A stretch of 64,000 bases of DNA from Jejuia sp. Its GTDB lineage: Bacteria; Bacteroidota; Bacteroidia; Flavobacteriales; Flavobacteriaceae. The notes under the pieces were generated by a model, which saw only the letters and a list, made by a program, of their open reading frames with translations, made no database searches and was not told where the DNA came from. The stretch lies in contig JBMHCT010000021.1 in NCBI GenBank assembly GCA_049889775.1, positions 39,024 to 103,023 of the forward strand, read 5' to 3'. Made by a program: the position numbers and the translations under genes. Numbering within the stretch: the stretch's first letter is position 1; each line of letters opens with the position of its first letter. Positions 40,869-54,654 of the stretch are shown one piece after another.

Positions 40869-41732
40869 ATGAACGCCGGTTTTAAAACATACCTTTCAGA
40901 TTTACTAAATGAATCCATTTTAGGTATTAATTCTATTTCTGGCGGTGACATCTCCAAAGCCTATAAAATCTCAACAACAAACTCTGATTACTTTCTAAAA
41001 ATTAACAATGCTCAAAATGCGCTAACAATGTTTCAAACAGAAGCCTATGGTTTACAAACTATTGGCAAAACATGCACCATAAAAACACCCGAAGTCATTG
41101 CTTATGATATGTTTGAAGATTCTGCATTTTTGTTATTGGAATTTATAGAATCGAAATCACCAACATCCGAAGGTTTTAGACTACTTGCAACGCAATTAGC
41201 GCAATTACATCAATGTACTTCTGAAAGTTTTGGTTTGGATAAAGACAACTTTATCGGACGTTTACCACAACCCAACAAACAACACAAAACTTGGACGGAT
41301 TTTTACACTTGCGAACGCTTGCAACTACAGCTGGAAATGGCAAAACAAAAAGGCTTTCTACAAGAATTTGAATTTCCAAGTACAGAACTCATAAAAAATC
41401 GATTACAACCATTGTTTAAAAACATAAAACCATCTTTATTGCATGGTGATTTATGGAGTGGTAATTACTTAATTTCAAAAGATGGTGAACCATATTTAAT
41501 TGATCCCGCAGTGTATTACGGCCATAGTGAAGTTGATATTGCTATAAGCAAACTTTTTGGCGGTTTTGGCGAAACGTTTTATGAGGCTTATTGGTCAATA
41601 TTACCTCCTGATGAGCATACTTCGGCAAGAATTGATATTTACCAACTGTATTATTTACTAGTGCACTTAAATATGTTTGGGCGGTCTTATTATGGGTCGG
41701 TAAGCTCAATTTTAAAAAGGTACTTCGCTTGA
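40869..41732 (+). CDS. Fructosamine kinase family protein
   Basis: ISGGDIS, YFLKIN, PSLLHGDLWSGN, IDPAVYYGHSEVDIA. Confidence 0.92.
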   Translation: MNAGFKTYLSDLLNESILGINSISGGDISKAYKISTTNSDYFLKINNAQNALTMFQTEAYGLQTIGKTCTIKTPEVIAYDMFEDSAFLLLEFIESKSPTSEGFRLLATQLAQLHQCTSESFGLDKDNFIGRLPQPNKQHKTWTDFYTCERLQLQLEMAKQKGFLQEFEFPSTELIKNRLQPLFKNIKPSLLHGDLWSGNYLISKDGEPYLIDPAVYYGHSEVDIAISKLFGGFGETFYEAYWSILPPDEHTSARIDIYQLYYLLVHLNMFGRSYYGSVSSILKRYFA

Positions 41733-41809
41733 CTTTGTAAAATTTTTCTTCTACCTTCGTTTACCGGCGGATATAAGCCATTATACAACGGCGCATATCC
41801 GAAATCACG
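41729..41809 (+). mobile_element. Cassette platform, left arm A1: promoter (TTG-N20-TACCTTCG) plus left part of an attC-like hairpin
   Basis: 79/81 bp identical to 51314-51394; similarity ends sharply after GAAATCACG. Confidence 0.75.
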
Positions 41810-42830: not shown

Positions 42831-42949
42831 GTTAAACGAACCTAAAAAAAGACCCAATAAGTAGATTGAGGGCCATAGCTGGCAAACACGCCCGCGTTAG
42901 GGATTGCAGAGGAAAGCCCACAGCGCAGCTAAAGCGGAGCGAGGACTTG
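42831..42949 (+). mobile_element. Cassette platform, right arm B1
   Basis: About 88% identical by manual alignment to 51628-51747, beginning GT(T/G)AAACGAACCT. Confidence 0.75.
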
Positions 42950-49703: not shown

Positions 49704-51123
49704 TTCCTTTTTTACTGTTCTCCACAGAATTGAGCCACTCAGAAAGTTCTTGTTTCATCTTTTTAGCAATTTCGGGAAGTTCTTTTATAATGTTTTGCTT
49801 TTCAGACGCATCATTAATTAGATCGTACAGCTCAAAGTCTTTTCCATTGTTAATACTAATCAATTTATATTGATTATCAGCCCAAGATTGTTGTCCTCTA
49901 AATATAAAACCAATTGGCTTGGTTCGTTCTATATCCTGTCCTTTTAGCGCAGGTAATATGCTCATACCATCTATAGGGCGATTATCAGGGAAATCTAATT
50001 GTAGAATATCAAGTATTGTTGGCAAGTAATCGCTTGTAACAGTAGGTTTATCTATTCGTTTTCCTGCTGCAAAATGATTGTTCGATACCGCAAATGCAGG
50101 AACTCTTAAACCACCCTCATACAAACTTCTTTTTCGGCCTTTAAAAATACCTGCACTACCTGGTGTTTTGTTTTCTGGACCATTATCACTACAATACATC
50201 AAAATAGTATTATCTGCTATTCCTCGAGCTTCTAGCGTTTTCCAAAGTCTGCCAATTTGTTCATCCATCGCGGTAATTGCTCCATAATATAATTGTTTTT
50301 CTAAATCCAAATCTTTGTAATAACTACGGTGAATAGTATCGGTAACTACAGGCAAATGCGGACTATGAAACCATATCGTTGTAAAAAATGGTTTGTTTTC
50401 TTTGTTAGTGTTTTCAATAAATGGGAGTAAGCGATCCATTATAATTTTGGAATCGTCACCATCTAGATTCTTCGTAATCTTTTCATTTTCTCCGACCCAA
50501 TACGCTGTTCCATAAGGCTTAGTTGCACTGCTATCTTTAACAGCTTTCCACCCAAACCGTTTACTTTCGCCTTCTCCAAACTCGGCAGGAAACACCATAG
50601 GATCATATGTTGGCACTTTAGATTCTGTACTAAAAAACACATCATACCCATGCTCTGTAGGTAAATTAAAATCTGAAATAAACTTTTCTTTTCCGCCTCT
50701 ATTGGCATCAGGTTCGGTTTTAGACAGCGTACCTAAATGCCATTTCCCAAAATGCCCTGTGGCATAACCTTGTGCCTTTAAAAGTTCAGGAATTGTTATT
50801 TCTCCTTTTTTTAGATGCCCAACATTAGCACTTGGAATATTTGTCCGCAAAGGATGTCGTCCTGTAAGTACACTTGCCCTAGTTGGCGAGCACACCGCAG
50901 ATGCTGAATAAAAACGATCTAGAATCACGCCTTTAGAAGCTAAGAAATCCATATTAGGTGTCTGAACCACAGAATTACCATTGAAACCAGTATCATACCA
51001 ACCATGATCGTCGGACATGATTAAAATGATATTGGGTTTCTCTTGCTCTCTTTCATTTTTATTTGACATACAAGTGTATTGTAAACAAATAAAAAGGCTT
51101 ACCATGACTTTGGTGAAATTCAT
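49681..51123 (-). CDS. Cys-type (S1) sulfatase 4
   Basis: PNIILIMSDDHG, CSPTRASVLTG, GKWHLG, SDNGP, LYEGGLRVP. Confidence 0.93.
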   Translation of the reverse strand: MNFTKVMVSLFICLQYTCMSNKNEREQEKPNIILIMSDDHGWYDTGFNGNSVVQTPNMDFLASKGVILDRFYSASAVCSPTRASVLTGRHPLRTNIPSANVGHLKKGEITIPELLKAQGYATGHFGKWHLGTLSKTEPDANRGGKEKFISDFNLPTEHGYDVFFSTESKVPTYDPMVFPAEFGEGESKRFGWKAVKDSSATKPYGTAYWVGENEKITKNLDGDDSKIIMDRLLPFIENTNKENKPFFTTIWFHSPHLPVVTDTIHRSYYKDLDLEKQLYYGAITAMDEQIGRLWKTLEARGIADNTILMYCSDNGPENKTPGSAGIFKGRKRSLYEGGLRVPAFAVSNNHFAAGKRIDKPTVTSDYLPTILDILQLDFPDNRPIDGMSILPALKGQDIERTKPIGFIFRGQQSWADNQYKLISINNGKDFELYDLINDASEKQNIIKELPEIAKKMKQELSEWLNSVENSKKGNDYKEPN

Positions 51124-51313
51124 GCTTTAGTTTTAGTTCGGCTTATTGAAAAAGCTATTTAGTTAGCGCTTACAAGTTAAGAAATATGGAGTATGCATAT
51201 TGCTTATATATTGGCAATATAACATCAAAAAAGCATAACAAATCGTTTATAATTTTAGAAACCCCATTGTACTTAAAACAAGGTTATGTGTTCAATCCAG
51301 ATTTACGTTTTGT

Positions 51314-51394
51314 TTGACTTTGTAAAATTTTTCTTCTACCTTCGTTTACCAGCGGATATAAGCCATTATTCAACGGCGCATATCCGAAATCACG
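51314..51394 (+). mobile_element. Cassette platform, left arm A2
   Basis: 79/81 bp identical to 41729-41809. Confidence 0.75.
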
Positions 51395-51627
51395 ATGGTA
51401 TGTAATTAACTGCGGCACGTGGAACCCGCGTTTTGCAAACGCTCCCATTCCACTAATTACATACCATCGTCCACTGTTTGTTGCACCCCTAGCCAATTAT
51501 TAGTACTTTTAATCGAGTCCACGTGAACTCCACAGTAACTAACTACACACATCAGCGTGTATAGCGAATGGGGCGCAACAATGGCTACCCAGTGGGGCGC
51601 GCCCCACTACGCCATACACAGTGGACG
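51395..51627 (+). mobile_element. ORF-less palindromic insert with attC-like structure
   Basis: 17-bp perfect inverted repeat 51392-51408/51454-51470; arms GTGTATAGCG and CGCCATACAC; CGTCCACTGT (51468-51477) is complementary to ACAGTGGACG (51618-51627). Confidence 0.6.
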
Positions 51628-51747
51628 GTGAAACGAACCTCAAAAATAGACTTAATACGTACATTGAAGGCCATAGCAAGCAAATACGCACGCGTTAAGG
51701 ATTGCAGAGGAAAGCCCACAGCGTAGCTAAAGCGGAGCGAGGACTTG
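51628..51747 (+). mobile_element. Cassette platform, right arm B2
   Basis: About 88% identical to 42831-42949. Confidence 0.75.
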
Positions 51748-51803
51748 TAACCCTTCGACTTCGCTCAGGATAAACTCCAAGCCCAACCCTTTAAGGGACG
51801 CCC
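51692..51803 (-). repeat. MITE-like element family A, copy 4, with nested REP (CCCTTCGACTTCGCTCAGGAT, 51751-51771)
   Basis: Degenerate termini GCGTTAAGGATTG and GGGACGCCC; extra hairpin relative to copy 3. Confidence 0.8.
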
Positions 51804-52032
51804 AATAAACGTATCAAAATCTCTAAGGTTAAGACTATTAATTCTTCAATATTCAATTCATTTTTTTGCTAAAACATTGAAGTTGCAAGGCTTGATATGG
51901 CAAATAGGTAATAGTTTTACATTGGTAACCTTTTTTTAACAATTAGGTTTATTTTTGCTAACATAGCCAAAAAGAGACAATAGCTCATTTTAATGGCGGT
52001 TGTTTACTTAATAACACCAACTTACAGAGAAT

Positions 52033-54654
52033 ATGATTCAAAAAGGTACAGAAGCACAACGGTTGGCAACTCCTAAAAGCAATGAAAACTGGAAAAAATG
52101 GGGGCCATATCTAGCAGATAGACAATGGGGAACAGTTCGTGAAGATTACAGTTTACATGGCGAATCTTGGGAATTTATAGATCATGAAAAAGCCCGTAGC
52201 AACGCCTTTAGATGGGGTGAAGAAGGGATTGCTGGTTTTACCGATATAAGAGAAATTTTATGTTTAGCACCTGCATTTTGGAACGGTAATGATACTATTT
52301 TAAAGGAGCGTTTATTTGGACTAACCAATAACCAGGGCAATCATGGTGAAGATGTTAAAGAATTATATTTTCATCAAGTATCGTCTCCCACACATTCTTA
52401 CAACAAATTTTTATATAAATACCCTCAAGCTGCCTTTCCATATGGCGAATTGGTGCACCGAAATCAAATTGGTAGAGAGCATTTTGAATATGAATTATTA
52501 GATACCGATGCCTTTAAAAACAATGCCTATTTTGATTGTTTTATAGAATATGCTAAAGCGGATGTTGACGATATTTTAATGAAGGTTACTATTGTAAATA
52601 GAGGTGATAAAATGGCTGATATTCATGTATTACCTCATTTATGGTTTAGAAATTTTTGGAAACACAACAAGCGCCATTCTCGTCCAAAAATAAAATCTAC
52701 ATCTACTTCTTCAGCTTTAACAAGTAGTAAGCGCAACGGCAATTATTATTTTTACAACGATGGCGGCACACAATTGTTTTGTGATAATGAAACCAATAAT
52801 AAACGCATTTACAATTTTAAAAACGACGTACCTTATGTAAAAGATGGAATTAACGAGCATGTTGTTAATAACCAACCTACTGTTAACCCTAAACAAACAG
52901 GATCTAAAATGGCTGTGTGGCATAAACTCTCACTTAAGTCTGGTGAAGAAAAAACGGTTCGCGTACGTCTTAGTAAATCCAAGTTAAAGAATCCTTGGGA
53001 GGATTTTGATACTATTTTCTATAATAGAATTAAGGAATGTGAGGAATTTTATAATGAGACTATTGATGCCAAAGTTCCTGAAGCGCATCAAGCAATAGCT
53101 AAAAATGCTTTTGCTGGTTTACTATGGACAAAGCAATTTTACTATAACGATGTGTTTAAATGGTTATTTGGTGGCCCAGGAGAAAGCAAACCACATAGAC
53201 ACAACATGCGTAATTATAGTTGGCAACATCTTACCAATAGAGATATTATTTCTATGCCAGATAAATGGGAATATCCGTGGTATGCTGCTTGGGATTTGGC
53301 ATTTCATATGGCATCTTTTGTTGAAATTGACCCTGATTTTGCAAAAGACCAAATGCTTTTAGTTCTTAAGGAAAATTACATGCACCCTAATGGACAAATT
53401 CCCGCTTACGAATGGAATTTTAGTGATGTAAATCCGCCTGTACACTCTTACTTTGTTTGGCATGTTTACAATCGCGATAAAACATATACTGGTAAAGGAG
53501 ACACTAAATTCTTAGAAACCGCATTCCAAAAGCTACTCATGAATTTTACTTGGTGGGTAAATCAAAAAGATAAAAATGGAACGGACCTCTTTGAAGGTGG
53601 CTTTTTAGGTTTGGATAACATTGGTGTTTTTGACCGTAACCACATGCCACCAGGTATTAAGCGCATGCAGCAAGCCGATGCCACAAGTTGGATGGCCATG
53701 TTTACATTGAATATGCTTCGCATGTCGTTAGAACTATCTAAAACCAATAGAATCTACGAAGAAGTAGCCGCAAAATTCTTTAGGCATTTCTTAAACATTG
53801 CCTGGGCAATGCATCATATTGGTAAAAAGGACATTTCGCTTTGGGATGATGAAGATAATTTCTATTACGATGTGGTGGAAATGGAATCTGGCGCAACTGA
53901 TAGGCTAAAAGTACGCTCTTTAGTTGGTGTAATACCTATGTTTGCTGTTGAAATAATGCACAAAGATTTATTCGAGGAACTAAAGGAGTTTAGAGTACGA
54001 GCGAACAAAATTATAGAAACACGCCCAGATTTGGCATCCTTAATCACCAAACTAGATAAAACCAATGAAGATGGTAACTATCTTTTTGCTATTATGCGTG
54101 GTTTTAGATTACAACATCTTCTCAAACGCTTATTGGATGAGGATGAATTTTTATCTGATTATGGTATTCGTTCTTTATCAAAATATCACGAAAAGCATCC
54201 TTTTGTTTTTCAACACCATGGTCATCATCAAATCCAGTATGAGTCAGGAGAAAGTCAGTCTAATATGTTTGGTGGTAATTCCAACTGGCGTGGTCCCATA
54301 TGGATTCCTATTAACTACATGATAATACAATCTTTACGAAAATATTATACTTTCTATGGAGACAGATATAAATATGAATTTCCAACAGGCTCTGGTAATA
54401 AACTTAACTTAAAACAAATAGCAAACGAGCTTACAAAACGTTTGGTAAAACTTTTTGAGGCAAATGAAGATGGAAAATTTCAGTACCATGCTGATAATGC
54501 AGATAAGCATTTTACCAAGGATGAGCATTTTAAAAATCTGCACTTATTTTATGAATTTTTTGATGGTGATAATGGAAAAGGTCTAGGCGCATCCCACCAG
54601 ACTGGGTGGACAGCTTTAATAGCCAATTTAATTATGGAAATGGATGAAGATTGA
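52033..54654 (+). CDS. GH63/MGH1-like glucosidase
   Basis: WGPYLADRQWGTVREDYS, MPDKWEYPWYAAWDLAFH, GGFLGLDNIG, FYEFFDGDNGKGLGASHQTGWT. Confidence 0.85.
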   Translation: MIQKGTEAQRLATPKSNENWKKWGPYLADRQWGTVREDYSLHGESWEFIDHEKARSNAFRWGEEGIAGFTDIREILCLAPAFWNGNDTILKERLFGLTNNQGNHGEDVKELYFHQVSSPTHSYNKFLYKYPQAAFPYGELVHRNQIGREHFEYELLDTDAFKNNAYFDCFIEYAKADVDDILMKVTIVNRGDKMADIHVLPHLWFRNFWKHNKRHSRPKIKSTSTSSALTSSKRNGNYYFYNDGGTQLFCDNETNNKRIYNFKNDVPYVKDGINEHVVNNQPTVNPKQTGSKMAVWHKLSLKSGEEKTVRVRLSKSKLKNPWEDFDTIFYNRIKECEEFYNETIDAKVPEAHQAIAKNAFAGLLWTKQFYYNDVFKWLFGGPGESKPHRHNMRNYSWQHLTNRDIISMPDKWEYPWYAAWDLAFHMASFVEIDPDFAKDQMLLVLKENYMHPNGQIPAYEWNFSDVNPPVHSYFVWHVYNRDKTYTGKGDTKFLETAFQKLLMNFTWWVNQKDKNGTDLFEGGFLGLDNIGVFDRNHMPPGIKRMQQADATSWMAMFTLNMLRMSLELSKTNRIYEEVAAKFFRHFLNIAWAMHHIGKKDISLWDDEDNFYYDVVEMESGATDRLKVRSLVGVIPMFAVEIMHKDLFEELKEFRVRANKIIETRPDLASLITKLDKTNEDGNYLFAIMRGFRLQHLLKRLLDEDEFLSDYGIRSLSKYHEKHPFVFQHHGHHQIQYESGESQSNMFGGNSNWRGPIWIPINYMIIQSLRKYYTFYGDRYKYEFPTGSGNKLNLKQIANELTKRLVKLFEANEDGKFQYHADNADKHFTKDEHFKNLHLFYEFFDGDNGKGLGASHQTGWTALIANLIMEMDED

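Follow-up and report, generated by a model that had tools for sequence, protein, structure and literature searches.

A conserved ORF-less, probably mobile cassette with nested arms and a GAT/ATC crossover triplet in Jejuia and other Flavobacteriaceae

In Jejuia sp., the 909-bp gap between a minus-strand sulfatase-like gene (ending at 51123) and a plus-strand glycoside-hydrolase-like gene (starting at 52033) holds a short element without an open reading frame that is filled with nested inverted repeats. Coordinates refer to the window, i.e. the whole stretch of 64,000 nts that was analyzed (contig JBMHCT010000021.1, positions 39,024 to 103,023 of the forward strand); contigs of the same assembly are designated by C and a number. 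An initial annotation had described the element as an ORF-less cassette with a non-canonical GAT/ATC crossover, and had proposed that its repeats were the scar of successive, partly inverted recombination events, or else an empty cassette. The question raised by this locus is thus whether the repeats are local debris or belong to a unit that is maintained as such and, if so, what kind of unit it is.

Compared with its own assembly, the intergenic region splits into modules: 51314-51394 (termed A), 51395-51627 (termed B) and an arm from 51628 onward.

51314-51394, plus strand: landing pad A, about 12 copies in this genome, with a different insert after ...ACG| in each
51314-51316 and 51338-51345, plus strand: promoter-like part of pad A, with TTG, a 21-nt spacer and TACCTTCG, a putative Bacteroidetes-type promoter by the published consensus
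51395-51627, plus strand: ORF-less cassette B (233 nt), which begins directly after G| and includes the terminal G
51628-51810, plus strand: right arm of the pad (GTGAAACGAACCTC...), which recurs after cassettes, and a REP-like repeat

B starts G|ATGGTATGTAATTA, the G being position 51394 and the A position 51395, and ends ...ACACAGTGGACG at 51627. Both ends had been placed there by the initial annotation and were confirmed by homology within and outside the genome, which stops exactly at 51395 and 51627 in 3 other copies of this genome and in 13 copies elsewhere. A full copy with 97% identity occupies C21:1-238, and matches of about 99% cover 136-154 bases at the end or the start of contigs C3, C32 and C35 and at both ends of C36; these contigs end at B because the repeat broke the assembly. 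At 3 further left and 3 right junctions, the sequence always switches at exactly ...G|ATGG and GGACG|..., and the copies of this genome, four including that of the window, are 97-99% identical and lie in different contexts. In one public DNA run, the depth over B was about 5x that of the flanks, a value that fits 4-5 copies, even though summed contig depth is a poor measure of copy number. B is a discrete repeated unit of its genome. It was also observed that contig C36 (2519 bp) consists entirely of one two-gene cassette with B on either side, encoding a 548-aa secreted protein with a C-terminal part judged by eye to be lysozyme/chitinase-like and a 133-aa lipoprotein; this layout suggests an array of the type recombinase-B-cassette-B-...

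No reading frame of B is conserved, because indels of 1, 2 and 3 nt break the frames among homologues. The 70-aa minus-strand ORF at 51284-51496 was rejected as a gene, as it is a chimera of pad and cassette. An Rfam scan of 50900-52300 on both strands (E<=10) gave no match in B and a single chance snoRNA match (E 1.7) outside it.

Full-length homologues with 70-95% identity are present in at least 8 Flavobacteriaceae genera or metagenome lineages. They were found in three further genera in a 200-genome sample of the family. Scans of public collections, which demanded an exact conserved core of 32-35 nt and therefore give minimal counts that divergent copies escape, detected B in species genomes of Jejuia (95%), Maribacter (84%), Algibacter (84%), Polaribacter, Winogradskyella (three copies, 81%) and Flaviramulus (70%), and in six additional metagenome lineages or contigs. 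A homologue with identical boundaries is carried by genome G089, and a second organism in public run X6 has a B about 98% identical, while its pad carries another cassette. In all homologues the flanks are unrelated, and homology opens after G and closes with ...GGACG; the contexts of B amount to four in this genome and more than 15 elsewhere. Reduced forms also exist. A natural deletion form of 110 nt, mini-B (L056:1967-2076, also found in L046), retains only helices 1 and 4 of the fold described below and is still located at G|TT junctions. The 3' module of B is found as a solo site at C3:46305-46425 and at L050:7385-7517, where it directly follows a tRNA gene and terminator and heads a cassette array.

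We read B as an ORF-less cassette of an integron-like system because its flanks are attC, attI-like or pad junctions and because one copy adjoins a recombinase gene. The 3' part of pad A consists of a hairpin (CGGATAT...ATATCCG) followed by the spacer AAATCAC and the crossover G at 51394. A second copy of the pad (41729-41809, 98% identical) carries an ORF cassette with a canonical attC, composed of G|TTAGGTGC, a 291-codon ORF, then GCACCTAAC-AA-TGTATAACCG ... CGGTTATACG-AGACCG-G|TTAAACGAACC. Its R'' and R' boxes show a perfect 9-bp match (GCACCTAAC versus G|TTAGGTGC), and it is a textbook cassette with opening bases that pair perfectly with its own R'' box. The right arm recurs after the cassettes at 42831, C21:150291, C13:59028 and C35:344852, and straight after the empty pad at C35:220556. 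Among about 22 copies of B, we recognized the 3' end of a canonical attC on the left side of roughly two thirds (such as ..CCATACATCAAACG| or ..GGTTATACGAAACCG|); the others have an attI-like ..GCGTATATACGCGTG| palindrome (five copies) or an A-like pad (two copies) there. In this system, the 3' ends of canonical attCs have the sequences ..TTATACG-AGACCG-G|TT, ..CATATACAAACCG-G|TT and ..CCATACATCAAAC-G|TT. The G of the left boundary is invariant in the 14 aligned copies and the right boundary is GGACG|TT in most; to the right, the base following G is mostly T, and G, A or C beside a pad arm or an odd neighbour, the pads themselves reading G|TT, G|TC or G|GT. In most cases an ORF cassette on the same strand comes after B. 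No excision, inversion or empty-site joint was found in the contigs of 4 public runs, which drop rare forms and are uninformative in the parts without cover.

Two further elements of this genome are mentioned here for completeness, the first of them outside the window. At C35:219270-220556, an IS110-family element of about 1.2 kb, with a DEDD transposase gene on the minus strand (219862-220272), interrupts a copy of pad A, with ...TTCTTCTACCT on one side and TCGTTTAACGGCGGATAT... on the other; apart from this insertion, the pad is empty (reading ...GTACG|GTAAACGAACC). The REP-like intergenic repeat (51679-51810) has more than 25 copies in this genome, in which GCGTTAGGGATTGCAGAGGAAAGCCCACAGCG and a variable hairpin precede CGAGGACTTGGAACGGAAAGCCCGACC..AACGCCCAAA; the copy of the window contains an extra insert (51751-51780) and has no Rfam match.

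The recombinase gene, P0001 (C3:63424-64590, 388 residues), is divergent from the copy of B at the end of C3, and its start codon is 53 bp from B. The catalytic domain scores 132.8 bits with PF00589, and the R..HxxR..Y region aligns to XerA and IntI4. P0001 remains below the cut-offs of the IntI models TIGR02249 (181.9 bits for a cut-off of 265) and NF011946 (106 for 435); the TIGR02249 alignment is in two stretches (model positions 3-179 and 239-315) with merely 17 residues between them, and the gap (positions 180-238) is the region of the IntI-specific insertion. The best matches are archaeal XerA (NF040815, 194 bits) and PDB 4A8E, below every curated cut-off, and the protein has a 110-residue N-terminal extension. 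As P0001 does not qualify as IntI, the system was named integron-like rather than integron. The divergent layout of P0001 and B is that expected of an integrase and its attI. An integrase-like gene divergent from an adjacent attI-like site and cassettes is present at the end of C3 and also in Algibacter (G063:C4), where a 75% identical homologue of P0001 is followed by the same attI motif (..AACTGCACATATATATGTG|TT) and then by attC-bearing cassettes. The copies of B in Algibacter, G089 and Flaviramulus are far from recombinase homologues, and the B loci of Winogradskyella and Flaviramulus gave no recombinase match, so that adjacency of B and recombinase is shown only in the Jejuia genome. In the Algibacter locus (L057, G063:C4:1-3000), the first cassette by the recombinase holds an ArsR-like regulator and MerT/MerP-like genes of metal transport, judged from N-terminal sequences only. 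A locus from a sister species in the genus of the window (L060, G040:C2:1-8000) shares a photolyase-like gene with the end of C3 and carries a small zinc-ribbon gene and a different recombinase (39% identity) in place of the P0001-type recombinase and B.

The repeats of B are the arms of one fold. The perfect 17-bp inverted repeat quoted in the initial annotation (51392-51408/51454-51470) is present, about 3e-5 such repeats being expected by chance per 951 bp by our arithmetic, and a second repeat pairs 51468-51477 with 51618-51627. Joining 51618-51627 to 51395-51408 gives a sequence whose exact reverse complement is the segment 51454-51477; the minus strand of this segment reads ACAGTGGACGATGGTATGTAATTA, i.e. 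the 3' end joined to the 5' start with the G shared, and the report of a second junction copy on this strand was correct. The parts of B are as follows.

51395-51408, plus strand: cassette start (ATGGTATGTAATTA), corresponding to the right half of R'; as the 5' strand of helix 1 it pairs with 51455-51468
51409-51453, plus strand: 45-nt cargo made up of a conserved 10-nt bulge with the consensus CCTGCGGCAC, a GTGGAA/TTCCAC stem and a GCGTTT-TGC-AAACGC stem-loop
51454-51477, plus strand: outer 5' arm of the attC-type site (R''/L'' equivalent), or splint, complementary to the 3' end plus the 5' start
51478-51489, plus strand: 5' strand of helix P3, pairing with 51570-51581, with compensatory changes at alignment pairs 85-187, 86-186 and 94-178
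51541-51566, plus strand: inner 5' arm, with AACTACACACATC, AGC and GTGTATAGCG, where AACTACACACATC is a paralogue of AATTACATACCATC in the outer arm
51570-51617, plus strand: variable terminal structure including the 3' strand of P3 (51570-51581), with compensatory pairs 190-220, 191-219 and 202-211
51581-51585 with 51611-51615, plus strand: helix P5 (ATGGC/GCCAT), within the terminal structure
51591-51608, plus strand: GC hairpin P4 (AGTGGGGCG/CGCCCCACT), within the terminal structure
51610-51627, plus strand: 3' arm, comprising CGCCATACAC (L' box typical of the family), AGTGGAC (spacer) and G at 51627 (crossover)

An alignment of 14 full-length copies, from which three degenerate or partial copies (Algibacter L040, L053 and the mini form) and two Winogradskyella duplicates were left out, was analyzed with RNAalifold and by direct counting. 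Both gave one nested fold in which helix 4 closes 51468-51477 with the last ten bases, helix 1 closes over the 45-nt hairpin, and P3, P5 and P4 lie inside. Over the 14 sequences, 96.6% of the cells are paired, and 97% in the 3' strand of helix 1 plus helix 4 (columns 74-83 with 225-234). Compensatory double changes affect 11 pairs, a number that was reached in no more than 3 of 500 shuffles; the score for covariation, 0.141, compares with 0.079 after shuffling (0 of 500 as high) and 0.03-0.04 with partners slid, although these statistics overstate independence as the sequences are few and related. Changes of this kind are seen in helix 1 at pairs 1-73 (AU in 7 sequences, UA in 6), 4-70 and 5-69, and in the cargo stem, where GTGGAA/TTCCAC is replaced by GTAGAA/TTCTAC (pair 27-57). 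Folding of the single sequence recovered the same structure on both strands (z = -6.3 and -6.0; none of 200 shuffles as good). Combined, these results indicate that the nested repeats are conserved, covarying helices, the normal arms of the cassette's own site. The 17-bp repeat is three bases longer than the arm because pad A also happens to end in ACG, and the second junction copy is what any attC 5' arm is.

The two 5' arms differ in character. The outer-arm helix is continuous over 23-24 bp and has neither an unpaired central spacer nor extrahelical bases; since classical attC sites need both, the outer-arm fold could be an inhibitory or unrelated structure instead of a substrate. The attC-like unit described earlier at 51541-51627 (AACTACACACATC, AGC, GTGTATAGCG ... 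CGCCATACAC, AGTGGAC, G) reads as described and associates the inner arm with the same 3' arm in a shorter, more canonical site, with spacers of 3 versus 7 nt (2 versus 6 in ordinary attCs of the family). Its proposed R''/L'' (ACACATC...GTGTATAGCG) is the second, inner arm, and the inner L''/L' helix is 83% paired with zero compensatory changes. Mismatches of the G.T and A.C types number 12 and 13 in our tally (pair 14-60 left out), without strand bias, and these balanced counts make DNA and RNA folding indistinguishable. The cargo tip GCGTTTT.CAAACGC is invariant in 14 of 14 sequences and in mini-B. The term empty cassette is not quite accurate, as B carries a 45-nt, almost invariant hairpin cargo. 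The strong invariance of unpaired parts, among them the 10-nt bulge and the tip of the hairpin, is a hint of some role besides recombination.

The crossover triplets could then be compared. Those listed by the initial annotation, GTT (41809|41810 and 42831|42832), GAT (51394|51395) and GGT (51627|51628), are found at these junctions; only the G is common to all. B starts with ATGG in 8 of the 14 aligned copies and with TTGG in 6. The partner base in the outer arm (CCATC or CCAAC) matches the start base in 13 of 14 copies and that of the inner arm (ATC or AAC) in 11 of 12; other genera carry the GTT/AAC version. Judged from these matches, GAT/ATC is a coordinated, compensated variant of GTT/AAC, and the GAT reported earlier does have its matching ATC. 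On a tree built without the columns concerned, the A and T states require three changes (2-4 in bootstrap trees, never one), the strongly supported branches alone forcing just one; the A/T switch probably arose more than once. The experimental rule for class 1 integrons is that a match is required at the first G alone, and a T2->A change combined with its complement recombines at or above the wild-type level (Frumerie et al. 2010, PMC2811028). The earlier proposal that a relaxed triplet implies a recombinase reading structure is reasonable, but not new. What B adds are natural sequences in which the second base of the crossover triplet flips if its partners flip, as engineered in class 1 integrons.

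The explanation that we favour, and consider likely, is that B is a mobile non-coding cassette with a fold that serves as recombination substrate, selfish or neutral and possibly promoter-donating. It would combine a 45-nt hairpin cargo with an unusually long attC-type site (~190 nt). In single-stranded B, whichever the strand, the arm 51454-51477 would pair with both cassette ends and put the crossover G|(A/T)T within a continuous helix, and the same 3' arm could alternatively combine with the inner arm 51541-51566 into an attC of more canonical form. A Xer/IntI-like tyrosine recombinase, encoded elsewhere in the genome beside another B, would cut after the conserved G and exchange a single strand; its partner would be an attC, an attI-like palindrome or a landing pad with promoter and hairpin. 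In the window, B would have entered pad A between ...ATCACG and GTGAAACG... The boundaries, the contexts of the copies, the covariation of the fold and the proximity of a recombinase gene are observed; we infer strand exchange by P0001, single-strand folding in vivo and the function of B, which is most likely that of a selfish or neutral passenger persisting through good recombination. B may in addition supply a rightward promoter to downstream sequence.

51481-51511, plus strand: candidate rightward promoter, with TTG at 51481-51483, a 20-nt spacer and TACTTTTA at 51504-51511

In homologues, the second box of this candidate is TATATTTA or TATATTTG. The TA..TTT(A/G) box is nearly invariant, unpaired in the fold and located 18-20 nt downstream of TTG, and the two elements would fit the Bacteroidetes -33/-7 promoter pattern.

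The main rival gives B a job at the level of the host, either as a mobile promoter or insulator or as a structured non-coding RNA made from the pad promoter, cassette mobility being merely the vehicle. It would explain why the TTG-N18-20-TA..TTT(A/G) motif is kept in an unpaired stretch, why the near-invariant 10-nt bulge and the GCGTTTT.CAAACGC tip exceed the needs of a recombination site and why a same-strand ORF cassette usually lies downstream, and promoters or regulatory RNAs were proposed for the non-coding cassettes of Vibrio (Boucher et al. 2006, PMC1382264). However, the bases beside the crossover and the cassette termini are part of helices 1 and 4, as expected of a recombination site and not of an RNA, a transcript from the internal promoter would miss the 5' half of the fold, mini-B persists without the promoter region, and Rfam gave no match. 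B is covered in contigs of two RNA libraries, with the junction 51627|51628 bridged, as the rival would have it, but the depth over B in these libraries is about 6-7x that of the flanks compared to about 5x in DNA and, these ratios being close, was taken to reflect copy number only. We consider this explanation rather unlikely. The scar reading, in which the nested repeats are local debris and no unit exists, has far less in its favour. Two paralogous 5' arms (AATTACATACCATC and AACTACACACATC) do share one 3' arm, which suggests an ancient duplication or fusion of site halves, and solo 3' modules and a mini form do exist; on the other hand, the entire 233 nt are retained in 14 sequences taken from many genera and compensatory changes preserve the helices, four copies of this genome are 97-99% identical in different contexts, and B shows no inversion relative to neighbouring cassettes. 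Because of this conservation across genera and copies, any fusion of site halves must be old and its product maintained as a unit; the scar reading is already largely refuted, and we give it very little credence.

It is equally hard to sustain that B is no cassette but a non-autonomous transposable element targeting attC-like hairpins, be it a MITE, an IS110/IS1111-attC derivative with a guide RNA or an IS200/IS605-type hairpin element, and we rate this as highly improbable. The internal 24-nt complement of the joined ends recalls a donor guide, IS110-family elements reside in this genome, one of them within an A pad, and Y1-transposase-like matches exist. Yet ATGGTATG... at one end is no inverted copy of ...AGTGGACG at the other and the flanks are not duplicated, so that neither the terminal inverted repeats nor the target duplication of an IS or MITE is present, and the IS/MITE case that the initial annotation had named as its refutation does not apply. 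Similarity to IS110 is likewise lacking: blastn of B against two IS110-family elements gave a best match of 11-13 nt (E>0.3). Moreover, both ends of B fall exactly on the crossover point of cassettes, and the 3' end bears the family L' box and spacer in a module that is an ordinary solo attC elsewhere. A link of the Y1-transposase matches to B was dropped as they are weak and unlinked, and so were group II intron, bridge RNA, retron and riboswitch ideas, since the boundaries are cassette junctions.

Within the cassette explanation, a more specific and in our view doubtful idea is that B is a self-splinting site, the internal arm making of both ends, from one strand, a double-stranded-like core. 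If this were true, such a substrate could be used by a Xer-type recombinase devoid of the IntI insertion that binds extrahelical bases, the inner and outer arms would be mutually exclusive conformations acting as a switch at the DNA level between locked and recombinogenic states, the 45-nt hairpin would be a dedicated protein-binding or priming signal, and the B family would represent a living intermediate between Xer/dif and integron attC recombination.

The properties of B can be set against those of known systems. Integrons are known mainly from Proteobacteria, and the usual length of a classical attC is 57-141 nt. Like classical attC sites (R''-L''...L'-R', G|TTRRRY, recombined by IntI1 or VchIntIA), B is an imperfect palindrome in which the 5' arm complements the 3' end plus the start, its crossover follows a conserved G and its variable terminal structure is branched; as in ordinary attCs of its own family (2 versus 6), the spacer of the inner arm is asymmetric (3-nt versus 7-nt). 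Unlike them, its outer-arm fold is devoid of an unpaired central spacer and of extrahelical bases, its triplet is GAT/ATC, and its site of ~190 nt exceeds the usual range. P0001 resembles XerA, XerC and XerD, as it scores best with archaeal XerA NF040815 and PDB 4A8E, but differs from them in remaining below the cut-offs, in its 110-residue N-terminal extension and in an integron layout instead of a dif-resolution layout. Chromosomal integrons of Vibrio contain non-coding cassettes that are paralogous and conserved between species (Boucher et al. 2006, PMC1382264). B shares with them the absence of an ORF, full-length conservation between species, several paralogous copies and bounds at cassette junctions, and the suspected roles are the same, a selfish element or a promoter or regulatory RNA. 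In contrast to Vibrio cassettes, its host belongs to a different phylum and the recombinase is without the IntI-specific insertion; B is almost entirely recombination site, which takes up ~190 of its 233 nt and includes two 5' arms, one nested in the other, and an R-to-L region paired throughout, and it often stands alone on dispersed landing pads, not in one long array. Isolated cassettes, single, away from the integrase and adjacent to host promoters, are described by Loot et al. (bioRxiv 10.1101/2022.09.11.507474). Single copies of B away from the integrase resemble these isolated attG/SALIN cassettes; they differ from attG/SALIN insertions in that the sites receiving B are a repeated structured module (promoter, hairpin, spacer and G) of about 12 copies instead of diverse non-att sequences. 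IntegronFinder 2.0 reported one complete integron within Bacteroidetes proper, in Salinibacter ruber (PMC9024848), and our literature search, of incomplete coverage, found no description of integron-like cassettes in Flavobacteriaceae. New here are the host family with its Xer-like recombinase, the landing-pad context and the architecture of the cassette, of which about 80% is recombination site and in which two 5' arms are nested and the R-to-L region is paired throughout; non-coding paralogous cassettes shared across species (Vibrio) and a relaxed triplet (class 1) were already known.

The flavobacterial cassette system appears to pair a simpler Xer-like recombinase with dispersed landing pads. 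B is its most widespread and best-conserved passenger and, for this reason, offers (as 233 nt, or 110 nt in the mini form) a compact, covariation-rich substrate for asking what such a recombinase recognises. In genome data of flavobacteria, repeats like B break short-read assemblies and yield spurious small ORFs.

Some further observations concern the neighbours of B. The cassette following B starts with TTGTG in 8 of 17 cases, TTGTGT being complementary to ACACAA of the inner arm, and this start is found in none of seven cassettes following plain A pads; co-mobilisation and selection for folding in the context of the array are two possibilities. Of the 8 positions of the pad box TACCTTCG (51338-51345), which is -7-like, 7 are complementary to CG|ATGGTA (51393-51400), where the pad meets B, and the bottom strand of the pad plus the first bases of B consequently folds like a complete attC; this complementarity may be due to chance. 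Finally, at L050:8780-9650, the cassette after B starts G|ATGGCAAC although its own R'' reads GTTGCCAAC, from which TTGG would be expected; the A creates an ATG start codon exactly at the cassette boundary.
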